The notes under the pieces are model-generated. The model searched no databases, was not told the origin of the DNA, and worked only from the letters and a program-made list of their open reading frames with translations. The position numbers were made by a program, and so were the translations under genes. Below, piece after piece: positions 2,871 to 28,057 of a stretch of DNA of 64,000 nt. Source of the DNA: Candidatus Marinacidobacterales bacterium (GTDB taxonomy: Bacteria > Acidobacteriota > Vicinamibacteria > Marinacidobacterales > DATDRI01). Where the stretch lies: contig CBDCNP010000002.1 in the NCBI GenBank assembly GCA_965219415.1, positions 1,920,001 through 1,984,000 on the forward strand. The letters run 5' to 3'. Positions within the stretch are counted from its first letter, which is position 1; each line of letters begins with the position of its first letter.

Positions 2871-3371
2871 ACGGCGACCGCTGACGTGGTCATGTATGAC
2901 GAGGAGTTCAACCAGATAAAGGTCATCATCAGTAAGCTCCGAGTCGACGCCAACGCAAAACTCGTTTTCCTGGTTGACAAGAACGGGCAACAGATCGCCG
3001 CCCATGGCGACGTCGAGAACCTGGACACTACCTCTCTAGCTTCTCTAACCGCAGGTAACGTCGCGGCCACCGATGCCCTCGCCAAGCTCATTGGTGAGAG
3101 GGAGTTCTCGATCCTCTTCCACGAGGGTGAGCGGGACAATATTCACATCTCGATCGTGGGGCTTCGGGTCATTCTGGTAGTCATATTCGATGAACGTTCA
3201 TCCCTCGGATTGGTCAGACTTCGCGTAAAGAAGGCTTCCAAGGAGTTAAACGACATCTTCGACCGGATCATGAAGAAAGTCGAAACAGAGAAGAGTACCT
3301 ACGGCGCCGGCGTGGACTCGCCCTTTGCGGAAATCACGGACGAGGATATCGATAGCCTCTTTAGCGAATAA
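2871..3371 (+). CDS. mglB: Roadblock/LC7 protein, MglB-type GAP (start uncertain: ACG 2871, GTG 2886 or ATG 2892)
   Basis: FLVDKNGQQIA, LASLTAGNVAAT, SSLGLVRLRVK, acidic C-terminal helix; directly upstream of mglA. Confidence 0.92.
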   Translation, partial: TATADVVMYDEEFNQIKVIISKLRVDANAKLVFLVDKNGQQIAAHGDVENLDTTSLASLTAGNVAATDALAKLIGEREFSILFHEGERDNIHISIVGLRVILVVIFDERSSLGLVRLRVKKASKELNDIFDRIMKKVETEKSTYGAGVDSPFAEITDEDIDSLFSE

Positions 3372-3392
3372 TCTGAAGCTGGGAACGAACGG

Positions 3393-3989
3393 ATGACCTT
3401 CATCAACTACGCCTCACGGGAGATCAACTGCAAGATCGTCTACTACGGGCCGGGGCTATGCGGGAAGACCACCAACTTGCAGTTCATCTACGATAAGACG
3501 AACCCCAGTGCCAAGGGTAAGCTCATCTCTCTCGCCACCGAGACGGACCGGACTTTGTTTTTCGATTTTCTACCACTCGAGCTCGGAAACGTCCGCGGCT
3601 TCAAGACGCGCTTTCATTTGTACACGGTTCCGGGACAGGTATTCTACGACGCCTCGCGGAAGCTCATCCTCAAGGGCGTGGACGGTGTCATATTCGTCGC
3701 CGACTCCCAGCGCGAGCGCATGGATGCTAATATCGAAAGCCTTCAGAATCTCGACGCGAATCTCAAATCGCAAGGTTACGATCTTCAGAGCATTCCCTAC
3801 GTCCTCCAGCTCAACAAACGGGATCTGCCGAGCGCGGTTCCAGTCGAAGAGATGAAGAAAGCGCTCTCCGTCAGGACAGAGCCGGTCTTGGAGGCCATCG
3901 CCAAATCCGGGAACGGGGTGGGTGTCTTCGATACGTTGAAAGCGGTGGCCAAGCTGGTGCTACAGGACCTGACGAAATCAGGGACCTAA
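3393..3989 (+). CDS. mglA: MglA small Ras-like GTPase
   Basis: [41 protein letters not shown]. Confidence 0.96.
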
Positions 3990-4043: not shown

Positions 4044-4118
4044 TCCCCGGTAGCTCAATGGTGGAGCGGCGGACTGTTAATCCGATGGCTGTAGGTTCGA
4101 GTCCTACCCGGGGAGCCA
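4044..4118 (+). tRNA. tRNA-Asn (GTT)
   Basis: Acceptor stem TCCCCGG/CCGGGGA, D arm GCTC..GAGC, anticodon loop CT-GTT-AA, T arm GTAGG-TTCGAGT-CCTAC, encoded CCA; extended -10-like TGcTATACT just upstream. Confidence 0.97.
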
Positions 4119-5528: not shown

Positions 5529-5942
5529 TTACTCACCAGGTCTTCGAACTCGGGGGGTCACGGCAAGTACTGCTCCTGGCACGAAGTCCGAGGAGTCCAG
5601 GAGATCCTGGAGCCTCGTCGCTTCTCCACCGCTGAGATGCGTGAATTGGACACCTTGAAGGACGGCGCTCGGAACACCCTGCGGGGAGTCGAGCTCGGGG
5701 CCGCTCCAAACGATGCGAGCCGGGGTCTTGAGCAGGTCCCCATGGCGGTAAAAGCTCATGCGTAGCATGACGATCCGGCCTTGCCCCACCGTGGTATCGG
5801 TCATCACGCACGCACCCGTCTCCGAGATGTTGGTGACGACACCGTACGCCAGATCGGTCTCCCCAACGTGTACGGCAACGGTAACCGGCTTGCGTGGCGT
5901 CAGGCGGCGGCTGGCACGATTCTGAATGAGGTTGCCTTCCAT
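5529..5942 (-). CDS. Stand-alone PilZ-domain protein
   Basis: RxxxR (RLTPR) and NISETG motifs, GVQF strand; GGAGAGGAG upstream of ATG 5942. Confidence 0.75.
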   Translation of the reverse strand: MEGNLIQNRASRRLTPRKPVTVAVHVGETDLAYGVVTNISETGACVMTDTTVGQGRIVMLRMSFYRHGDLLKTPARIVWSGPELDSPQGVPSAVLQGVQFTHLSGGEATRLQDLLDSSDFVPGAVLAVTPRVRRPGE

Positions 5943-6074
5943 CGTACTCCACTCCTCTCCCAACGGAGGGGGTGGCCTTTAGTGGTCGGGATTCTAGCCC
6001 AATTTTTATCGCTAATCGCAGTTGTTGTCAAGAGTTGCGGGGATGCGCGGAGGCGGGGAAATCGTGAGGTCGGT

Positions 6075-7091
6075 TTACGTCGCTCGGGCCGCAGCGAGGG
6101 CCCTAAGGAGGAGGAGATCGCCCTCGGATCGGGGGTTACAAATGAACCCTTCGCGAGTGTGGGCGGTCATGAATCCTCTCTGTTCCAGGATGAGCGCTTG
6201 GTGAGCCACGTACTCCTCGATGTTGGTACGGGGGAAAAACTGCGGCTCGTCGTCGACGATGGGGCCCTTGAATCGTGGCCAGCCGAAACTGAGCTCCGGG
6301 AAGTCCCGTCGCGGATAGTGGATGTTTCCCCACGAGCACTGTGGATAGATGTACCGATCGTACGTGGGCTCGGGCTCCTGAGCGGATGAACACGAGATGA
6401 TGACCTGCGGCCACCTCTCTCGTACTTCCTTCACGACGCGATTCACCCGGTCGGGCTCCCAACCCTTCCCCTGGATGTCGACTTCGTTGCCCAGCCTGAA
6501 AACGATGTTCGGTAGATCGTTGAGTCGCTCCATCACTTCGAGGACGTAGTTCTCGGTCGCTTCAAACCTCCGAAATAGTGGACCGCCATTCTGTTCGAAC
6601 TGTGTCACTAGGATGACGTACTCCATGACCGCACGCCGTGGCACGAAGGCTTGGCGGACGGTCTCCCTCACTGTCCGAACGTGCTCTCGAGAAGGATGTC
6701 GTCCAGTATCATCCACGGCGCGGTGCTTCGGCACGCGATCCAAAAGCGGATCGCTCGGCCAAAACGACGTATCGGAGAAAACCCGGAACACGACGATTCC
6801 TTCGGCGATCCCGCGCTCGACCCAGGCGATTCGGTCTTCCGAGGAGCGACCCAACAAACCGAAGCTCGTATAACCGATGTAGTCGAAGTTGAATGTCTTA
6901 CCAATGACCGCGGGCCGAAAGCCCTGGTTCTTCTGGGCGTACTCTTCACTCCGAAGAAGCGACTCCCTCATGTCGGCTTCGCTCATCCCAGCGTTCATTT
7001 CGATGTTGTAGAAATTACGCCCATCGGGATCGACTGCCCGTTGCAAAATGTCGCGGTAGCCGTCCCGGATGATGGAAGTGAAGTCGGGCAT
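6075..7091 (-). CDS. Putative clan GH-A-like TIM-barrel protein with shared N-terminal module
   Basis: 57-aa MPDF...LLRSEEY module; LGNEVD, NIHYPR and IVDDEP positioned like GH-A acid/base and nucleophile motifs. Confidence 0.55.
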   Translation of the reverse strand: MPDFTSIIRDGYRDILQRAVDPDGRNFYNIEMNAGMSEADMRESLLRSEEYAQKNQGFRPAVIGKTFNFDYIGYTSFGLLGRSSEDRIAWVERGIAEGIVVFRVFSDTSFWPSDPLLDRVPKHRAVDDTGRHPSREHVRTVRETVRQAFVPRRAVMEYVILVTQFEQNGGPLFRRFEATENYVLEVMERLNDLPNIVFRLGNEVDIQGKGWEPDRVNRVVKEVRERWPQVIISCSSAQEPEPTYDRYIYPQCSWGNIHYPRRDFPELSFGWPRFKGPIVDDEPQFFPRTNIEEYVAHQALILEQRGFMTAHTREGFICNPRSEGDLLLLRALAAARAT

Positions 7092-7094
7092 TCC

Positions 7095-8171
7095 TTAGAC
7101 CTGAATTGCAGCGGCCACGGGTTTCAGGACCGATTGCAGGAATTGGTAGACCGGTTTGGGTGAAAGGTCTTCGTTGACGATCCCGAACTTAGTGTTGCCC
7201 TGGTTCGGTCCGTCCCAATAGTGGAAGAAGAAAATCCGCTGTACCCAATCACTATTCCGCAGCGACGCGATGACCTCCTGGTAATACTCCACTTGATCTC
7301 CCTCTTTCGTCTCTCGCCCGGTCTCGGTGATCCAGAACGGCTTGTCCGATACTCCTAGATCCTCCATCAGGGTTCTCAAAGAAGGTCGGAAGGCCCGATC
7401 CTCTTCGAGCTCGCGAATCACGTCTCGCCCGCGGCTCGGATAGTTGTGATGGTTGATGATGTCGATGAGGTTCTTGGCCTTCATCGCCTCTTCGAACCAA
7501 TCCCTCCAATCTCCTAAGTTGGCGAGGCCGGGCGAAACGACCTGGCTAGCCGGATGGAGCTCCTTCGCCAATCGAGCCGCCGGCTGCAAGATCTGAGTCC
7601 GATACTGGCTCCTGGAGCCACGCCAAAACTGGTCGAGGTTGGGCTCGTTCCAGAATTGCCAGAATCGAACCTTGTCTCGATATCGGGTAACCGCCTCCCT
7701 GACGATGGTGGTCCAATAGCTCGTCTGGGCCGGAGGATCGCTGATCTGTGGGTTCTGCGGGTTGGACGAAGCCCAGGGTGGCGTGAAGGAGAGAGTGGCC
7801 AAGGGCTCGACGTTCAGTCTGAACGCTTGGTCGACAACGCGATCCGTATCCTCCCACCTGAAGACCCCTTGTTGCGGCTCCATGCGAAACCAATCGAAGT
7901 CGATTCGAATCCACTGCATTCCAAGGTTCCTTCCGATGTCGCGCAGCATGGTATTCGTAGGAATGTGGGCGTTGAGCCCGAGCCGCGTGGGCATGCCTGG
8001 ATCGGGATTGTTGGTCGCGTACTCCGGGCTTCGGAGTAGTGACTCGCGCATCTCGGCCTCCGACATCAACTGATTCATCAGGCCGTTGTAACTGGCGAGT
8101 CCAGTCGGATCAGGGTTTCGTTCTAGGATCTCCTGATAGGCTTCGGTAATGATGGGCGAAAAATCGGGCAT
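7095..8171 (-). CDS. Clan GH-A glycoside hydrolase (GH5/GH39-like) with shared N-terminal module
   Basis: WIRIDFDW, TPPWAS, FWNEPN, NHHNY, WITETG, FGIVNEDLSPKPVY; same N-terminal module. Confidence 0.8.
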   Translation of the reverse strand: MPDFSPIITEAYQEILERNPDPTGLASYNGLMNQLMSEAEMRESLLRSPEYATNNPDPGMPTRLGLNAHIPTNTMLRDIGRNLGMQWIRIDFDWFRMEPQQGVFRWEDTDRVVDQAFRLNVEPLATLSFTPPWASSNPQNPQISDPPAQTSYWTTIVREAVTRYRDKVRFWQFWNEPNLDQFWRGSRSQYRTQILQPAARLAKELHPASQVVSPGLANLGDWRDWFEEAMKAKNLIDIINHHNYPSRGRDVIRELEEDRAFRPSLRTLMEDLGVSDKPFWITETGRETKEGDQVEYYQEVIASLRNSDWVQRIFFFHYWDGPNQGNTKFGIVNEDLSPKPVYQFLQSVLKPVAAAIQV

Positions 8172-8202
8172 GAAGCTAGGCCTCCGGCTGGTGCGTAAGA
8201 AC

Positions 8203-8484
8203 TTATCTACTCTTACCGCGGGCCTTGGTTTTCTTCTTGCCGCGTGCCGACTTGGACTTCTTGCGCTTCGAAGATTGAGCCTTAACCGAAGCCTTCGCCG
8301 CTTGGGCAGCTTGATCAGGATTTTTGATCGCGTACTCCTCGCTTCTCAGAAGCGTCTCGCGCATCACCGCCTCGGTCATCCCTTGATTCATAAGCTGGTC
8401 GAAGTTTTCCTGGCCGCCTGGATCGGCCGGACGCGCGAGTATGCGCATGTACGCTAGATTGATGATTCGTCCAAAATCTGGCAT
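8203..8484 (-). CDS. Small protein: shared N-terminal module plus Lys/Arg-rich tail
   Basis: AGAGGTG RBS; module homologous to the two downstream genes; tail KASVKAQSSKRKKSKSARGKKKTKARGKSR. Confidence 0.8.
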   Translation of the reverse strand: MPDFGRIINLAYMRILARPADPGGQENFDQLMNQGMTEAVMRETLLRSEEYAIKNPDQAAQAAKASVKAQSSKRKKSKSARGKKKTKARGKSR

Positions 8485-8670
8485 CGCTCACCTCTTATGA
8501 GAGCACTCGGTACTAGCCTGAGAGTCTGCTCTCTGGCCTCCCCCGGGGACCCAACAATATTAGCTTACCGATCGCGCCACCGTGAGAACGATCACACTCG
8601 TTGACCAGGATTTTCACAAGGAATATATTGGGGCTTGACTAGGGGGAGCAACTTTTCAGGGTGATCGAAT

Positions 8671-9859
8671 ATGACTTATCGATGGATGTTGCTCCCTAAC
8701 ATACTGCCGCTTTGTTTCTTACTCGCCTGCCAGATTGGCGAAAACGCTGAGCCTGCCGATTTCGACGAGTTGCTCGCTAGCTTCCATCGGCTCTCGTCGC
8801 AAGAACGCCAGGAGCGGGTCGCCGACTACATCACGACCAACGGACCCACTCCGGTGATCGAAGGCAACGAAGCGATTTTCGTTGCCCAGGGCGACCCCTC
8901 GACACCTCCACGGATCCTCGGCGACTTCAACGCTTGGTGAAGAAACGACGACGGGCCTGTCGCCTCGGCAGGTAACATGACGCCGATCGAGGGAACCGAC
9001 TGGTATTACCTAAGGATGGAATTCCGTCCGGACGCGCGCATCGAGTATTCGGTCGTCCGGGGTGAGGCCGAAGAGCTGGATCCACACAACCCCTCGACGA
9101 CCGCGGGCGGCGAGCACCAGCTATCGGAGTTGGCGATGCCAGTCTACGACCCCCACCGGAGTTTTCCGAGGATACTTCGGTCCCCAAGGGCCCAGTGAAG
9201 GAGAGTATTTTCAAAAGCCGGATCTTGAGCAACGAGCGCAAGATCCTCATCTACTTGCCGAGCGGTTATGAAAAAAGTGATCGCCGCTACCCAAGCATCT
9301 ATATTGGGGATGGAGCCATCTATGCGGAACGCGGTTTTCCCGAGCTCATCGACTACGCCATCGCAGAGGGTCTCTGCCGACCACTCATTGCGGTTTTCGT
9401 AGATCCCGTCGTCCGCCGCGAAGAGTACCGGATGCACGAGGGCTATCGCCGGTTCATGACTGAAGAGCTGGTGCCCTTCATCGACGAAAGTTACCGGACC
9501 TTGACCGAGCCGAGCGAAAGGGCAACGTTGGGGGCCTTCGCGCGGAGGACTGGCGGCCGCGGACTTGGCCTATTCTCATCCGGAGATGTTCGGCTTTGCC
9601 GCGGCTTTGAACTCCCGCGACCAGGCCCACGAATTTCAACGAAGTCATTGCTTCGAATCCCGCCCGGCCGGTCCGGTTCTTCCTGATGGTCGGTCTCTAC
9701 GACACCCGCTGGGCCAACGACGGCTTCGAGCTTCGCGACGCTTTGGTCGAGGGAGGCTACGATTTCGCTTACGTGGAGGTCCCCGAGGGACACAACCTCA
9801 AGGCGCGGGGAGCCCAGTTGGACGAGATTTTCGCCGATTTTTTTCCGCCTGAACGTTGA
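8671..9859 (+). pseudogene. Fes/enterochelin-esterase-like alpha/beta hydrolase lipoprotein, several frameshifts
   Basis: Lipobox LLAC; GDFNAW, RKILIYLPSGY, EELVPFIDESYRT and VPEGHN fall in successive frames. Confidence 0.75.
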
Positions 9860-9959
9860 GCGTTCCCTTTTGAGGAAGCGAAAGACTGAGGGATCGCCGT
9901 GATATACTCGGCTCTTTCGAACCTGACGCTCATGTGGTCGGAGAAAGGAGGCGACCCGA

Positions 9960-16587: not shown

Positions 16588-18942
16588 CTACTGCGCAGAT
16601 CGTGCGTGGGCGCGGGGCGAGGGCTTCGCATGCCAATCGGCGACGACGCGCTCCGCCGGCTTTCCCCGCGGCGTCCAAACGTCGCCTCCCGAACCGGCGT
16701 TCGCGGGGTCGGAGAACCATTTCCACCAATAGAATCCATAGAACCAGGGGCGCGACCAATAGGTCTCGAACGTAACCCGGTAGAGAAGTGCCTGCCGTTC
16801 CCGAGATCGGTCGGGCTGCCCTCGTGTTTAGCGGTTCCCGCCGCGCGAACGGAAGGAAAGCCGACTTCGGTGAAGACCACCGGCTGGCCGACGCGAAGCG
16901 CAACCGCTTCTATCCGCTCCGCTACGCGCTCCGCTGCAACGCGGAGTTGCTCTTCGTCGGCGTCTGCACCCTTCGCTAGCGGGTAGTAAGTTATCGAGTC
17001 CAGCGACATCGAGCGCATCCCAAAAGGTAAGGCTCTCGAATTCCTCGTACCAGTTGGCGGCGTAAGTGAGAGGGCCCTGATAGACCCGCCTCACTTTCGC
17101 GATGATCTCGCGGATTTTCTCCGGTCGCTCGAGGGCCGGGTGAGTCAGCTCGGTGCCCACGCAGAAGAGGTCCACCCGCAGCTCTTCAGCCAAGAGCGCG
17201 TACGACAGGATCCAGCTTTCGTAGCTTTCGAACCAAGCATTCCACTCCTGGTCGGTCTCGAAATCGATGTCGCTCGGCCAGTCTTGGTAGCTGAGCCAGA
17301 TCTGCGGCTTCATCATGACCCGCAATCCCAGTCGCCTCGCGTCCGCGGTGGCCACCCGAATCGACTCGTCGCTCTCGGTGCTGATCGAGCTTCCGGCGCG
17401 ACGGATCGCGGTTCGGTGGACCGGTGAAGTAAAGCCGTAAGGCACCAGTGCCACAGCGTTGGCCGCTAGGTCTCGCAGTCCCTTGAGAGATTCCAACGAA
17501 CGGGCGGTCGGATACCCACTCTCGCGACTGTTCGTGTAGGCATAGTTGAAACCCTTGTGAAAGACTTTGGCACTGGAATAAGACCGACGCGAAAGCTCTG
17601 CTTTTTCCGCGAAACCCTCGGCGTCGGAGGAGGCCTCACGTTCAAGCTGACGTTGCCACCTCTTTTCCCAAGTTTGCAGGCGGGGCTCCCCGTGCCCCGT
17701 GTAGTGACGACGAAATTCGTCGCTCGTCATCTGCTTTCGAAGAAAAGAGACCCAGCTCGCCGCGTAGGCTCGATAGACCGGCTCGGGAAAGGCCAGCGAC
17801 AGACGGTCATCGGTCGCCGCGAGCCGCCGGAGCTCGGGAGGGAACCCGAGGTAGGCGAATCGAGCCGCCTCCTCCTCGAACGGCAGTCCGGCCAACATCC
17901 GCGAGTACCCGGCCCGCAGATACGGCTCGACCGGAGCTCCCAACAAACGGTCCAAGAGCAACCCCACTTCTTCGGCTCCGTCCAGGCCACTGCGCTCCGC
18001 AGAGTAGATTGCGTGGACCGTTAGCATGCTCGAATCGACATGGGACCGAGCCATCGAATCGACCAACCGGCCCTTGGTCTCGTGGGTCGGATAGAGATAG
18101 AAACGGATCGATAGCTCCGGCAGGTCGCCCAATTCCTGAGCCGCCCGGTCGAGCCGGGCCCCTAGGGTCTCGAGGATCGCCTGATGCTTCGATTCTGCGA
18201 AGCTCGCCTCCGGGTAGTAAAGCTCCAAGCGATCGCCAGCCGACCGCTGTAGAGTCTCCGCCCACGCTTCTTGCTCCGCCAGAATGTCGACGTCGGAGGC
18301 CGAGTCTATGCGGCCTTCGGACAGTCGCCCGTAGCGAATGGCGCGACGGCCTTCGAGAATCGAATAGTCCAGTCGCCCGAACCAAAAGCCTCGCCGCGAC
18401 AGAGGGGATTCGTGGGTTGCTCCAGCAACGAGAACCACCGGACGCTCCGGATTCCACGGTGAAAGCGTCAGGAGTCGAAGTACGTGCTCGACTTTTTGGT
18501 AAGATCGTCCGCCAAACGAGAAGCCTTTCGAAAAACGAACCGGCGTTTCCTCAACGATCTCACGGACCCATCGATTTGCTTCGGGTCGACCAATTAAGAT
18601 GATGGCAGCTTCCTTGCGATCGGAGGAAGAGAGGTTGTGATCAGCGATCACTTTCGCTGGACGGCCCCAAGAGTGATAACGCTCCGCGAACCGCTCGGCC
18701 TCAGCACGATACTGGTCCGACCACTTCGGGGCAGCCGTCCCGTAAACGATGAGAAGGGGGGCTCCCTCGCGAAGGGAACGCACCGCACGGCGGCGTTTCA
18801 CTTCCCATGATTCGCCCTCGGCAGTGAGCGAATGGACGCCGAGATGGAGGAGCACCGCTCCACCGAAGAGAACGGTCACGGCCAGGAATAAAGACCAGAC
18901 TCGGTGCACAGAGCTACTATAGCCCACGGTGGGCCTACGCAT
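16588..18942 (-). pseudogene. GH113-like glycoside hydrolase with long N-terminal extension, two frameshifts near the 3' end
   Basis: VALVPYGF, MMKPQIW, CVGTEL, TYAANW, then YYPL..VVFTEVGF and GFYWWKW..PRGKPAE in shifted frames. Confidence 0.75.
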
Positions 18943-23641: not shown

Positions 23642-26600
23642 CTAGGATTTTTTGCTGCGGCCGCTGGTCACGGGAACGGCGTCTCGAGCCGGCCGCTCGG
23701 TGCGATATTCCTGACGTATGGCCTGCGCCTCTTCCTCGATCCGCGTCTCGCGTCCATCGCGAAGATCTTCAACCACCCGCTCGACCAATCGAGTCACCGC
23801 CCGCTCGGCGTCCGAGCGTGCAAGCCCCTCTCCAACCCGCTGAAACAATTCGGGCTGGAGGTACGGTCCGATCACCGCGCTCACCTCGCGTGATTTCAGA
23901 TACCAACCTCCCGGCGGCAAGGCTTCGTGGGTACTGAGATACATCGGAAGTACCCCGACCTTGGCGCGCAAGACAAGGTGACCAAGGCCGCGCTGGAAAC
24001 GTTGCATGCGGCCACTTCGAGAGCGCGTACCCTCCGGGAAGAGCAGCAGGTTGTACCCTTGTTCGACGATATTGAGTGCCCACTCGAGTGATTTCCGGAG
24101 GGATCCCTTTCGCTCCATGGGCGCGAGGTTGGTGAAGTTCTCGAAGAAGGCTCGCTTCAGACGGTTATCGAAGAAGTAATCGGCAGCGGCCAATGCGACG
24201 AGATTCTTTCCTGCGTCGCCGAGCGCCGTTTTCACGAGTCCCATGTCCAAGTGGGACGAGTGATTCGCCGCGACGATGAAATGCGTATGCTTTGGTATGT
24301 GCCCTCGGCCGTGAAATTCCGGGTTCAACACTTCGTGGTAGAACCACCCCTGGGCCGCGGTCAGGCCCTGACGCCCGAGGTTGGCGATCAGAGGAGGAAC
24401 AGCAATTTCCTTTTCCTCCTTCTTCTCCGCGACCGCGCGTGCAGCAACCTTTCGGTCGGCGCTCACCGGCTTCCGTTTGAGATAGTCCACGAGCTCTCGA
24501 ATGTCGTTCAAGCCCGCCAGGACATCCGGCGAAGGCACGTCGCCGGTGGTGCTTTCGAGGGCCGTCGCAAGCTCGTTGTACATCAGGCTGTCGAACCCCA
24601 GCTCATCGAGTCGGCTATCGAGACGTACTTCGGCGCGCGGTTTCTCGCAAATGGTCGCCACCACATCGAGGAGCCAGTTCGAATCGAGCCCGGGGGCTTC
24701 GCTGGAAGGCGCCGGCCGCGCGTCGCTCTCTCGTTTGAGCTCTTGCATCAACGCGACGATCTCTCGACGCTTGATCTTTCGCGTCGACGTGCGCGGCAGC
24801 TCTTTGTCGGTAAACTGGAGGATCTTGGCTCTTTTGTAGAGAGGCAGCCGGCTGGACGCGCTCTGGAAATGCCTTTCTATTTCGGCGCGAAGCTCCCCTT
24901 CACTCATCGACTTGTTGTCCTCGACATTAGGCACCACCAGGCAAGCCACCCGCTCGGCCGCGCCGTCAGGAAAACCCACTACCGCGAGCTCTTTGATCCA
25001 TTTCGGATCGGCGTAGACTTCTTCGAGCTCGTCGGGGTACACGTTCTTGCCATTCCCGTCGACTATCATCTCCTTCAAGCGACCGACGATATGGAGATTA
25101 CCCTCTTGGTCCATTCGACCGAGGTCCCCGGTGTGGAGCCATCCATCGCGCAGCACTTCCTTGGTCGCCCGCTCGTTCCCGTAATAACCCGCCATGATGT
25201 TGGGGCCGCGGGCGAGGACTTCACCCACGCCCCGGGCGTCCGGAGTGTCGATGCGGATGTCGATTCCGGGTAAAGGCTGCCCCACGCTGCCAGGAATGGG
25301 ACGGCCGGTAGGCGGGGTGACGGTGAGCACCGGTGCCGCTTCGGTCATGCCGTAGCCTTCGTTGAGATTGAATCCCAGACCGCGAAACGTTTTGAGTGTC
25401 GATTCGGAGAGTGCCGAGCCACCGCTGATGAGGTAGCGGATCCTTCCCCCGAAACCAAGGTGAACCGGCGAGAAAAGGAGTGGACCCAGGTTGAAAGGAG
25501 TCTCGCCGCGCAACAAGTAGTTTCCGTCGATGAGCGCGGTAGCGATGTCCTCGAGCTTGGTCGAGCGGTCGGAGAGACGGCTCAGCACGCGTCGCTTCAG
25601 GAGATCCCAAAGAGCCGGAACACCCACGATGCATGTGACGTGTCCCTTCTTGAGCGTCCTGGTCATGGTGTCACCGGTGAGCTCGGTTAAATACGTGATC
25701 TGTGCTCCACGGCTGAGGGGAAGGAGAAACCCGGTCGCGAACTCGAACGAATGGTGAAGCGGCAGCGCGCTCAACATCCCGTCCTCGTTGTTGATGTCGT
25801 AGACGGTTAGGAGCTTGGCAACCAGACTCGTGAAGTTCCGGTGCGTCAACATGACCCCTTTGGGGTTTCCGGTGGTGCCGGACGTGAAGATGATGGAGGC
25901 CAACGCCTTGGGACCGACCCTCTCTGGAAGCGCGGCGATTCTTTCGCGCTCGACGGCTTCGTCACCGAGAGCAAAGATCTCTTGGAACGCCCATACTGGA
26001 GACTTGACGTCGACCACCGCGAGCTGACGATCGAGCTCGACATGCTTCTTCTTAAGCTCATCACTAATAACCAACCCGGTCGCTTCGCCGAGGCGTATCA
26101 GGTTGACGATCTCTTCTGTGGTCGCCTCCTTTTCGATCGGAATGCAGGTTGCGCCGGCTTTCAAGATACCGAAATAGCTCATGCCCCACTCGGGGGAATT
26201 CTCGGCGACCAAACCGATGCGCTCGCCCTCTCTCACGCCCTGGCCTACGAAGTACGCGGCCGCGCGGTGTACGCACTCTCTCAGATCGTCATAGGTGTAA
26301 CGTTCTTCGCGCCCCTTCCTCTCGATGCGCATGGCAATGCGGCCGGCGTGGTTCTTGGTCGCCGCATCGAAGAGCTCGGACAGGCTGCCGTAGGTATAGA
26401 TCCGTCGCGGCTTAACCTTTTCCGCTTCGTCCAACCGTGGGAACACCCACTTCTCGAGGCCGGGAAGATGAACCTTCAGCCAATAGTCATACCAATTGAG
26501 CGAGGCGATACCCCAGGGAAGAAGCTCTCGTTCCTCGGCGGGCATTCTCTCGAAAATCGCACGAGTGTTATCCGCTCGGAACGTGTAGTCGTTGTCGACG

Positions 26601-28057
26601 ATGAAGGGGCGGAAGGTTTGGTATTGCTCTTCACCCTGACTCGTGAAGCTCTCGAAGCGTTTCACCGCGTCCCGGGCCTGCTCGACGACGCCGCCGAAAG
26701 GACCGAGCTGCTGGGGTGGCAGTTGCTCCAGAAGTTCTTGAATCTTCCGCGTACCGCGATGCAACATCGGCATCGAGATCCGCTCGAAACGGTCCGGGCT
26801 CACCGCCTGTGCTTCCATGCGGGCAGCGATCTCGTTGAGAAGACGCGAACCGGTCTCCTTTTCTTTGAAGTGCTTTCTCTTATAAAGCCCAAGCAAGACG
26901 ACGAGTCGCCCCAAGCGCGCCGGATTCGTATCTCCCGAGCATACTTGGTGCACCAGCGCCGGCTCTTCCACCAAGGCCTGCGCAGTCGCCGCCAGCACCA
27001 CCGCCGCCGTGTGATCGACCGGGATGATGTCCAGCGTGAGATTTTCTTCGACTGGAAAGAGGTTCTGGCCTTTCAAGGCCATCCGGATGAGCGGAGCGGT
27101 TGTAGTGAAGCCCTCATTCCACCCAGGGAAGGGGAACTCCAACGAGCTCTCGACGATGGCCGGGCGGATGATTGTGCGGGCGATATCGGTCTCCGCCGCC
27201 ACGAGCTGCTCTCCCAAACTCTTGGTGTAGGTGTAGATGTTGGGCCAACCCCACCAGTTCGCCTTTTCGATTCCGAGATCAGTCAGGCGAGAGCGGATCC
27301 AGTTCTTTCGCTCGCGCGCCACCGCGAGGCGAAGCGCCTTTTCATCATCTGGATCCCGACCCTCTTCGAGGAAACGCTTCTTGGCCGCCTCTTGGAACCG
27401 ATCGACCAGCGAATTATCCTGTGCCTCGTCCCTTACCCGGGCCGCGAGGCGCTCGCAGTCCCTAATCTCCCGCTCGACGGAGAAGTGAGGGACCTCGGGC
27501 TCTCCTTTCCTAGGGAAATAGCCGACGAGTGGCTCGTTCTCCCAGATCTGGCCGGACCGGTTTCCGGCGACGAAACAGGTGCTGACATGGACGAGCGCCG
27601 GTCGCTTCATCCGCTTGGCGAAGGCAATGATATTGAGAGTCCCGGTGACGTTGGTCTTGAGAGCGGCTTCGAGCGGCGGATTGAAGGTCACCCGGCCCGA
27701 GCTATTCACCAGAACGTCGATGTCGGAAGCGATGCGTGCCGCTTGTTCTTCGGAGTAGCCAAGGTTCTCATCGGTAATGTCGCCACCGACGATCACAAGC
27801 TTCTTGTGAAGAAAGGCCTCGAGCCCAGAGGCGTATCGTGCCCGCAGCGGATCGAACGCCGGGGAGGGCAGGATGGTCTCCCAGAAACGGCTTTCGCTTT
27901 CCGCATCGGAGGCCGCACGAACCATCAAGTAGACCCGGCCGATCTGGGGAAAGCGATCGAGCAACATGCTCAGGACGACCTTGCCGAGAAAACCGGTCCC
28001 TCCGAGAAGGAAGATACGTCGGCCGGCGAAGGCCTCGCTAGGCTTTAGGTCGGACAA
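23642..28057 (-). CDS. elbD: Multidomain fatty acyl reductase / acyl-CoA synthetase / ACP / acyltransferase, ElbD-like
   Basis: GGTGFLGK and YTYTK (reductase), FTSGTTGNPKG (adenylation), GFDSL (Ppant site), NHSSHLD and FPEGTRS (PlsC-type). Confidence 0.9.
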   Translation of the reverse strand: MSDLKPSEAFAGRRIFLLGGTGFLGKVVLSMLLDRFPQIGRVYLMVRAASDAESESRFWETILPSPAFDPLRARYASGLEAFLHKKLVIVGGDITDENLGYSEEQAARIASDIDVLVNSSGRVTFNPPLEAALKTNVTGTLNIIAFAKRMKRPALVHVSTCFVAGNRSGQIWENEPLVGYFPRKGEPEVPHFSVEREIRDCERLAARVRDEAQDNSLVDRFQEAAKKRFLEEGRDPDDEKALRLAVARERKNWIRSRLTDLGIEKANWWGWPNIYTYTKSLGEQLVAAETDIARTIIRPAIVESSLEFPFPGWNEGFTTTAPLIRMALKGQNLFPVEENLTLDIIPVDHTAAVVLAATAQALVEEPALVHQVCSGDTNPARLGRLVVLLGLYKRKHFKEKETGSRLLNEIAARMEAQAVSPDRFERISMPMLHRGTRKIQELLEQLPPQQLGPFGGVVEQARDAVKRFESFTSQGEEQYQTFRPFIVDNDYTFRADNTRAIFERMPAEERELLPWGIASLNWYDYWLKVHLPGLEKWVFPRLDEAEKVKPRRIYTYGSLSELFDAATKNHAGRIAMRIERKGREERYTYDDLRECVHRAAAYFVGQGVREGERIGLVAENSPEWGMSYFGILKAGATCIPIEKEATTEEIVNLIRLGEATGLVISDELKKKHVELDRQLAVVDVKSPVWAFQEIFALGDEAVERERIAALPERVGPKALASIIFTSGTTGNPKGVMLTHRNFTSLVAKLLTVYDINNEDGMLSALPLHHSFEFATGFLLPLSRGAQITYLTELTGDTMTRTLKKGHVTCIVGVPALWDLLKRRVLSRLSDRSTKLEDIATALIDGNYLLRGETPFNLGPLLFSPVHLGFGGRIRYLISGGSALSESTLKTFRGLGFNLNEGYGMTEAAPVLTVTPPTGRPIPGSVGQPLPGIDIRIDTPDARGVGEVLARGPNIMAGYYGNERATKEVLRDGWLHTGDLGRMDQEGNLHIVGRLKEMIVDGNGKNVYPDELEEVYADPKWIKELAVVGFPDGAAERVACLVVPNVEDNKSMSEGELRAEIERHFQSASSRLPLYKRAKILQFTDKELPRTSTRKIKRREIVALMQELKRESDARPAPSSEAPGLDSNWLLDVVATICEKPRAEVRLDSRLDELGFDSLMYNELATALESTTGDVPSPDVLAGLNDIRELVDYLKRKPVSADRKVAARAVAEKKEEKEIAVPPLIANLGRQGLTAAQGWFYHEVLNPEFHGRGHIPKHTHFIVAANHSSHLDMGLVKTALGDAGKNLVALAAADYFFDNRLKRAFFENFTNLAPMERKGSLRKSLEWALNIVEQGYNLLLFPEGTRSRSGRMQRFQRGLGHLVLRAKVGVLPMYLSTHEALPPGGWYLKSREVSAVIGPYLQPELFQRVGEGLARSDAERAVTRLVERVVEDLRDGRETRIEEEAQAIRQEYRTERPARDAVPVTSGRSKKS

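Follow-up and report, generated by a model that had tools for sequence, protein, structure and literature searches.

Why would three adjacent genes, two of them coding for glycosidase-like enzymes and the third for a small basic protein, all begin with the same 57-amino-acid module? The question is raised by a stretch of 64,000 nucleotides from Candidatus Marinacidobacterales bacterium (Acidobacteriota, class Vicinamibacteria; GenBank assembly GCA_965219415.1, contig CBDCNP010000002.1, positions 1,920,001 to 1,984,000 of the forward strand), here called the window. An earlier note on this DNA (the original prediction) had pointed out three tandem genes with a common N-terminal module. The listing of open reading frames (ORFs) returned exactly these ORFs, with the same coordinates, as three consecutive ones on the minus strand, here named g1, g2 and g3, and the N-terminal sequences that had been quoted were recovered as well. 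We tentatively favor a reading in which the module would act as a common address: it may direct two hydrolases of polysaccharides, together with an adaptor that binds polyanions, to a single place, probably a glycan of the envelope or matrix.

The Shared Module Matches a Single DUF4214 Repeat

As the original prediction had claimed, the three N-terminal sequences align without gaps. Twenty-nine of the 57 columns are invariant, and the modules of g2 and g3 are 60% and 56% identical to the g1 copy. Past residue 57, the three proteins have no sequence relationship to one another. When the families of g2 and g3 were compared profile to profile, only the module aligned with confidence, and the same is true when the family of g4, a different module-tagged barrel protein of related genomes, is included.

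The module had been said to resemble DUF4214-type domains, and searches in both directions bear this out. Pfam DUF4214 (PF13946) reached 24.4 bits in g2, 19.4 in g3 and 18.2 in g1, near the gathering cut-off of 23.2, and all three matches cover profile positions 24-71 of 72. A six-frame scan of the genome gave DUF4214 scores of 27.0, 22.2 and 19.2 bits for the three copies. In the reverse direction, a module profile made from the three copies was scored against 1.84 billion representative proteins and matched 7571 representatives at E ≤ 1e-3 and 1514 at E ≤ 1e-10, with a best E-value of 2e-47. A sample of 66 proteins (63 multi-repeat matches and 3 single-module proteins of the tagged family) was then scanned with Pfam; PF13946 was found at E ≤ 1e-5 in 63 of them, and the 3 without it are the single-module proteins. 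Module and DUF4214 have the signature Y..(I/L)L.R..D..G ... S.E(Y/F) in common. Since the module profile retrieves recognized DUF4214 proteins, the module is, on the sequence evidence, a single DUF4214 repeat placed exactly at the N-terminus.

DUF4214 is usually found as tandem repeats in exported or surface proteins, a context that does not apply here, as g1, g2 and g3 have one repeat each and signal peptides are impossible (see below). Among the best 150 matches of the module profile, 131 have 2-14 tandem repeats and 19 a single one, and all 19 resemble the tagged g1/g2/g3 family or fragments thereof. Partner domains of the multi-repeat proteins in the scanned sample include FG-GAP, PKD, Ig/cadherin-like, DUF11, YkuD, CHAP and glucosaminidase domains, and a signal peptide is present in a 4-repeat DUF4214 protein of G005, another genome from the same family.

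The 8.05-Mb genome contains these three copies of the module only (Pfam DUF4214 and module profile, six-frame search). Recent duplication can be ruled out because the three modules differ considerably at the DNA level, where the mean column identity is 73% and third codon positions have often changed. Gene conversion is ruled out by the protein identities: paralogous modules are 60.7% identical within a genome and 59.6% identical between genomes, versus 68-71% for orthologs. By these comparisons, the three copies are old and have been kept distinct, all under strong constraint. The repeat has apparently been held about 60% identical among the three paralogs since before the split of three families of the class, here labeled f1, f2 and f5.

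Two Predicted Clan GH-A Barrels Carry the Module

Both larger proteins had been described as glycosidase-like. For g2, this is supported by a match to PslG and glycoside hydrolase (GH) family 39, for g3 by a clan GH-A barrel fold, and for both by conserved catalytic motifs, which are putative in the case of g3. Further barrel paralogs of g2 or g3 were not found in the same genome at E ≤ 1e-5.

Pfam assigns g2 to Glyco_hydro_39 (PF01229; 2.5e-11, 43.5 bits versus a cut-off of 26) and also to Glyco_hydro_cc, a glycosyl hydrolase catalytic core (1.3e-9). The best solved relative is PslG of Pseudomonas aeruginosa (5bx9), with an E-value of 2.4e-14 over residues 81-352. E176 (in WNEPN) and E283 (in ITETG) of g2 align to PslG chain positions 139 and 250, which with an offset of +26 correspond to E165 and E276. 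Passages of two papers on PslG give E165 as the acid/base and E276 as the nucleophile (PMC6813494, PMC11912335). In 28 sequences of the g2 family, N175-E176-P177 and T282-E283-T284 are invariant. Protein databases contain at least 120 full-length, intact homologs of g2, several of them named 'PslG' by JGI annotators. Judged from these alignments, g2 is a predicted retaining clan GH-A glycoside hydrolase with a PslG-like GH39 barrel, and it is probably active.

The barrel of g3 has no match in Pfam or NCBIfam. Its 35 homologs are all unnamed or 'hypothetical' (33 match the barrel, 2 the module only), and about 30 intact ones are present in protein databases. An AlphaFold2 model of g3 reached a predicted local distance difference test score (pLDDT) of 78.3 and a predicted template modeling score of 0.78, with weaker parts at residues 161-180, 201-210 and 231-280. 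The modeled fold is a (beta/alpha)8 barrel, for which Foldseek returned a GH5 mannanase as top match (E 3.6e-6), and the nearest ESM Atlas cluster is an acidobacterial 'GH5 domain-containing' group (score 0.96). The best profile matches in the PDB are GH5 endoglucanases, at E-values of 0.027-0.05. The clan GH-A pattern consists of NE after strand 4 and E after strand 7. In g3, G201-N202-E203 end a predicted strand (196-203) and D281-E282-P283 come after strand 7; both motifs are invariant in 25 sequences, with strand 7 lying in a low-confidence stretch and the assignment made without residue-level superposition. GH5 beta-mannanases and GH140 apiosidase-like barrels (3wfl, 8t9w) are only about 10-14% identical to g3 in structural alignments; because of this low identity, the missing Pfam match and an E-value of only 0.027 to GH5, g3 is placed in a separate sequence family. 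Going by the model, g3 is probably a clan GH-A (GH5/GH140-like) barrel, best read as an active retaining glycosidase of this new family.

A Small Companion With a Polybasic Tail

The third protein, g1, is small, and its only feature besides the module is a disordered polybasic tail. The tail has 36 residues, 15 of them lysine or arginine and none aspartate or glutamate, and a pI of 12. In the AlphaFold2 model, the module forms four short helices (pLDDT 75-83), whereas the tail stays below a pLDDT of 50 and is predicted to be disordered. A homolog search returned 41 sequences, 40 of them besides g1 itself, and 27 homologs were aligned with g1. Throughout these 28 rows the module is highly conserved, whereas the tail varies in sequence but is always basic, with means of 37 residues, 42% K/R, 0.8% D/E, 43% A/S/T and 3% hydrophobic residues.

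The tail had been called histone-H1-like and the protein compared to PhaF. Both likenesses hold for composition but not for sequence: in the libraries searched, the tail had no family match and no similarity to H1, AlgP or PhaF repeats. A phage or defense origin of the three genes was also considered and dropped, since none of g1-g3 had a match in PHROGs or PADLOC.

Conservation and Variants of the Cassette

We searched 301 genomes of the class for the module, with a threshold of E ≤ 1e-12. It is present in 19 of them, including 5 of 7 genomes in f1, 9 of 19 in f2 and 4 of 59 in f5, and searches of the other families gave no match. The set of 19 includes G007, an unpublished genome with a single g3 ortholog only. 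Homologs elsewhere are labeled as metagenome-assembled genomes (MAGs) of Vicinamibacteria or Acidobacteria.

The original prediction had named the lack of a conserved three-gene arrangement among the findings that would speak against it. Such an arrangement was found: g1-g2-g3 are colinear, with short gaps or overlaps, in eight genomes (G000, G001, G003, G006, G008, G014, G034, G038), and the cassette is conserved in three families. The flanking genes change by lineage (HAD hydrolase, PilZ and deoxyhypusine synthase genes in f1, unrelated genes in f5), which argues that the cassette travels as a unit. In three f2 genomes (G008, G014, G034), g3 is directly followed by a giant GH140-like gene (L018:268-5157, L019:8716-11121, L023:4007-5866), whose product has an apiosidase-like (GH140) catalytic domain, DUF5060 and Ig domains and, in G008, also a CBM9 domain. 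It may be a fourth glycan-degrading partner in that lineage.

Other loci combine the same elements differently. The order is g1-g2-g4 in G050 and G125 and g1-g4 in G142, while in G022 and at a second locus of G008 a 429-amino-acid barrel with a C-terminal module precedes a g1-type gene. Another tagged barrel, P0162, was found in the representative library. The g4 type (P0132) has no sequence matches in the PDB, and its putative GH-A nature is read solely from NE/NEY motifs in the alignment. By these sequence comparisons, shuffling has joined the module to at least four or five barrels that are unrelated to one another. The small basic-tailed protein is a constant companion of the module-tagged hydrolases: among all 17 loci with at least two clustered modules, 16 have a g1-type gene with a clear basic tail, and the exception (G002) has truncated ORFs.

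A divided cassette was seen in G018, where g1 and the N-terminal 200 amino acids of g2 are located about 19 kb from the C-terminal part of g2 and g3 (loci L020, G018:C1:1368000-1382000, and L027, G018:C1:1350000-1362000). The g2 fragment is followed by a gene with a TIR domain, and upstream of g1 there is a gene for a Mu-type transposase, which suggests disruption by a mobile element.

Might a common domain simply happen to sit on three neighboring genes, with no functional link between them? DUF4214 is very widespread, as the 7571 representatives indicate, but the 8-Mb genome has three copies only, all adjacent, their order and spacing are conserved in three families with different flanks, and the g1 type is nearly always there. 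With these conservation data, coincidence is hardly credible and we exclude it.

Do the Repeats Bind One Another?

The original prediction went further and proposed that the modules dock on each other. Single repeats would bind one another and so rebuild a multi-repeat array, which the g1 tail would tether to a polyanion. The proposal is compatible with a common address, and the tandem repeats of most DUF4214 proteins fit it well, as do the constancy of g1 as a partner of the tagged enzymes and the charges involved (the module is acidic, with a pI of 4.1-4.7, and the g1 tail basic). It can also draw on the phycobilisome linker domain PF00427, which co-matches on 19 of the 66 scanned DUF4214 proteins. 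One PF00427 domain spans about two DUF4214 repeats (in P0066, for example, residues 222-333 versus profile positions 2-115 of 126), so that a lone repeat may be half of a stable unit and may need a partner. In the g3 model, however, the module is folded confidently within one chain (pLDDT 88-96). The paralogous modules moreover keep separate orthologous identities instead of being homogenized together, and a cohesin-like second partner is missing. On balance, we regard docking between modules as somewhat doubtful. Co-folding of the three modules (residues 1-60, each with its alignment) gave scores of 0.34, 0.09 and 0.26; the median of 0.26, versus a mark of 0.32 and from a run without controls, has no bearing on binding either way.

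A more specific version appears distinctly unlikely to us. Here the lone repeats would be halves of a phycobilisome-linker-like domain that assemble between chains, and, with no receptor involved, polybasic g1 would recruit glycosidases that lack signal peptides and can replace one another (g2, g3, g4 and others) to a polyanionic surface. If true, assembly between chains would be a new way to build and place a multi-enzyme glycan-processing complex, and would for the first time assign a function to a domain family that numbers thousands of proteins.

Operon Layout and Lack of Signal Peptides

The coordinates of the cassette and its immediate surroundings are listed in Table 1. The gaps between the genes are 31 bp (8172-8202, g1/g2) and 3 bp (7092-7094, g2/g3), the same values as had been reported. 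A Shine-Dalgarno-like AGAGGTGA precedes the ATG of g1. A consensus scan of the minus strand of the 186-bp region 5' of g1 detected no sigma-70-like site, and Rfam had no match to a riboswitch or other RNA in 5900-8900 at E ≤ 1. Because of the short gaps, and because order and short spacing are repeated in relatives, the three genes are predicted to be co-transcribed; by its arrangement, the locus is a self-contained, tightly packed operon of Vicinamibacteria-class Acidobacteriota.

Table 1. Features of the cassette and its borders (window coordinates).
Feature	Position	Strand	Description
g1	8203-8484	-	93 aa; module (residues 1-57) and disordered Ala/Ser/Thr linker with Lys/Arg-rich tail (58-93)
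g2	7095-8171	-	358 aa; module (1-57) and predicted PslG-like GH39 (beta/alpha)8 catalytic domain (about 60-358)
g3	6075-7091	-	338 aa; module (1-57) and unannotated, predicted clan GH-A-like TIM barrel (58-338)
Module copy 1 (g1 residues 1-57)	8314-8484	-	ungapped alignment; own-genome profile match E 1.5e-35
Module copy 2 (g2 residues 1-57)	8001-8171	-	ungapped alignment and own-genome profile match
Module copy 3 (g3 residues 1-57)	6921-7091	-	ungapped alignment and own-genome profile match
Intergenic region 5' of g1, presumed operon promoter region	8485-8670	.	186 bp; common to the divergent broken esterase gene
PilZ-domain protein, downstream neighbor, outside the cassette	5529-5963	-	Pfam PilZ 1.6e-11

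According to the original prediction, none of the three proteins has a signal peptide, and the analysis agrees. The open frames of g1 and g3 close one codon 5' of the ATG, and the g2 frame has no ATG, GTG or TTG farther upstream. In the first 60 residues of each protein, the maximum hydropathy (Kyte-Doolittle, 15-residue window) is 0.78, 0.14 and -0.21 for g1, g2 and g3, so the N-termini are hydrophilic. With no upstream start and no hydrophobic stretch, signal peptides are ruled out.

These data raise the possibility that the whole assembly is cytoplasmic. The module would then dock g1-g3 on a cytoplasmic protein or polymer, in the manner of phycobilisome linkers, the g1 tail would bind nucleic acid, polyphosphate or the anionic inner leaflet, and the substrates of the hydrolases would be oligosaccharides taken up by the cell or a polymer made in the cytoplasm. 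The lack of signal peptides, and of room for them, fits a cytoplasmic location, as do the absence of secretion genes adjacent to the loci examined, the sequence kinship with the cytoplasmic phycobilisome linker domain and the absence of cysteines from g1 and g2. The same loci, however, also lack linked kinases, phosphorylases and transporters for cytoplasmic glycan metabolism. The partner domains of DUF4214 in the scanned sample are overwhelmingly extracytoplasmic, and PslG, to which g2 is closest among characterized enzymes, works on an exopolysaccharide (EPS) in the periplasm or at the inner membrane, according to the literature on PslG cited above. We therefore consider a cytoplasmic assembly unlikely.

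One N-terminal module combined with interchangeable C-terminal enzymes, encoded in tandem and lacking signal peptides, is also reminiscent of cargo tags such as MIX and FIX of type VI secretion system (T6SS) effectors. In such a scheme, the module would mark cargo of a dedicated secretion system, and the enzymes would hit surface glycans of other cells. In Serratia, a DUF4214 protein cluster is reported to correlate with T6SS presence. Immunity-like, secretion-system and VgrG/PAAR genes are nevertheless missing from every locus examined, PADLOC and PHROGs gave no matches, GH39 and GH5 barrels would be atypical antibacterial effectors, and the composition of the cassette is conserved within lineages and not polymorphic. 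A trafficking tag of this kind is highly improbable.

A Proposed Common Address for Two Hydrolases and an Adaptor

In the reading that we prefer, the DUF4214 repeat would be a common address domain that takes g1, g2 and g3 to the same target. By analogy with other DUF4214 proteins, this target would be a cell-envelope or matrix polysaccharide, reached by a Sec-independent route. There, the two hydrolases would trim or remodel the polymer, as PslG does for Psl, and the cationic tail of g1 would link this site with a polyanion, for example acidic EPS, lipopolysaccharide (LPS) phosphates or extracellular DNA.

Several lines of evidence favor an envelope or matrix address. A non-catalytic domain fused to glycosidases looks, by analogy, like a carbohydrate-binding module; PslG acts on an exopolysaccharide; and the partner domains of DUF4214 proteins point to the cell surface. 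So does the DUF4214 literature that we located. In segmented filamentous bacteria, the domain is described as likely to anchor proteins at the surface (PMC12780176), the gene of an extracellular DUF4214 protein adjoins an S-layer gene (bioRxiv 10.1101/695007), and Psh, an RTX-DUF4214 protein of Pseudomonas putida, is exported by a type I secretion system (T1SS) and binds the LPS O-antigen (bioRxiv 10.64898/2026.09.02.748959). By this analogy, the 'envelope' appears to be a better fit than the 'nucleoid' or 'granule' that had also been proposed.

Several observations weigh against this reading. Export is its weak point, as signal peptides are impossible on all three proteins. RTX repeats, secretion genes and EPS-synthesis genes were not found next to the cassette in any locus examined, and for these reasons the cytoplasm would be the default annotation. 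By sequence, DUF4214 is akin to the phycobilisome linker domain, a cytoplasmic domain that binds protein. Glycan binding by DUF4214 itself appears in the passages on Psh as an inference of the authors and not as a direct demonstration; a stabilizing role of the DUF4214 part in O-antigen binding is their suggestion (bioRxiv 10.64898/2026.09.02.748959). A fold search with the module alone gave no clear structural match. Finally, g2 is split into two ORFs in the long-contig assemblies G003, G008, G014 and G034 (loci L017, L018, L019 and L023), and in G003 g3 is split as well. The genes are intact in the short-read MAGs G006, G038 and G050 and in G000 and G001. Indel errors of long-read assemblies may well be the cause of the splits, with decay as the alternative.

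Neighborhood in the Window

The PilZ-domain gene downstream of g3 was considered as a further partner and is treated as a neighbor only. It has a promoter-like site of its own (6031-6002, minus strand, between g3 and the PilZ gene), and the scan of f2 and f5 loci detected no PilZ gene next to the cassette. On the other side, the gene divergent from g1 (8671-9862, plus strand) is broken into at least four ORF pieces in different frames (8671-8940, 8977-9198, 9195-9686 and 9686-9859). The piece at 9195-9683 matches the putative esterase family PF00756 (3.8e-11), and the gene is either a pseudogene or a product of assembly indels.

No compositional island signal was seen around the cassette (GC 0.57-0.58). 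Upstream of the block formed by the HAD gene, the PilZ gene and the cassette, and at a distance of about 2 kb from the cassette itself, there is a tRNA gene (4044-4115, plus strand, Rfam 68.6 bits). It is preceded by genes for a Roadblock/LC7 protein and a small Arf/Rag-like GTPase (2886-3986, plus strand), which we take to be an MglB/MglA-type pair. About 9 kb from the cassette on the minus strand, a 704-amino-acid protein (16831-18942) has a GH113 glycosidase domain in its C-terminal half (6.1e-35). Farther away (23645-28057, minus strand), a 1471-amino-acid fusion joins a fatty-acyl reductase-like part, an AMP-binding enzyme, a carrier domain and an acyltransferase; beside it are an epimerase gene and a LarA-N-like gene, and the group may belong to an unusual lipid pathway.

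Novelty and Significance

Each piece of the cassette belongs to or resembles a known kind: DUF4214, GH39/PslG and GH5-like barrels. In the literature within our reach, which excludes subscription journals, we did not find a description of the combination, i.e., a single N-terminal repeat on signal-peptide-less GH-A barrels, a small companion consisting of repeat and polybasic tail, and a conserved mobile cassette. Literature under the order name Marinacidobacterales was not found either. The passages of DUF4214 literature that we located report no experimental test of an isolated domain.

With 7571 representative clusters in the module-profile search, DUF4214 is among the larger uncharacterized bacterial domain families. 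Here a lone repeat sits in each of three small, soluble-looking proteins whose other parts can be interpreted, namely two predicted hydrolases with recognizable catalytic motifs and a charged tail, and the cassette thus offers a compact system for studying the binding partners of the repeat. With g3, an unannotated GH-A-like family is defined as well, and at least two further barrels with the same tag have come to light. Such tagged barrels occur in Acidobacteriota from soil and sea; in this phylum, the turnover of polysaccharides matters ecologically but has seen little biochemical work. Should g1-g3 be exported without signal peptides, the export route would be of interest in its own right.

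Comparison With Known Systems

The module shows a weak kinship with phycobilisome linkers (PF00427), represented by the REP domains of ApcE (8imi; E 0.12 and 0.057). When the module profile was run against the PDB, ApcE at E 0.12 was joined by two chance-level matches and nothing else. Passages of the Psh preprint place DUF4214-like regions under CATH 1.10.3130.20, 'DUF-like / Phycobilisome Superfamily' (bioRxiv 10.64898/2026.09.02.748959). The linkers differ from the module in being cytoplasmic protein-docking domains of about 126 residues, or roughly two repeats, and for a single module no fold match to them was obtained. A likeness to the N-terminal domain of RsaA could not be demonstrated.

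T1SS substrates have no N-terminal signal peptide. In this respect Psh, as described in the passages available, is like the cassette proteins, and the DUF4214 surface proteins have the same helical repeat signature. The cassette proteins differ in carrying one repeat instead of 2-14, in having it exactly at the N-terminus, and in its fusion to GH-A barrels or a polybasic tail. Unlike Psh, they have no RTX repeats, and T1SS or O-antigen genes do not adjoin the cassette.

Compared to PslG (5bx9, 4zn2), g2 aligns across the whole catalytic barrel and keeps equivalents of both catalytic glutamates, but it has the DUF4214 module in place of the signal/anchor sequence of PslG. The alignment stops at PslG chain residue 332 of 416, and g2 ends 6 residues farther on; since g2 ends with the barrel, it lacks the C-terminal domain of PslG. 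It is also located outside any EPS synthesis operon, as EPS synthesis genes do not flank the cassette.

In overall logic, the cassette is similar to the cellulosome, in which dockerin-tagged enzymes and anchoring proteins place a small shared module on several glycosidases and a non-catalytic anchor partner. The difference is that cassette loci contain no distinct receptor gene, cohesin-like or other, and that the enzymes and their partner g1 have the module in common. In PhaF-type proteins, a basic, H1-like tail of low complexity is joined to a binding domain, and g1 is built likewise.

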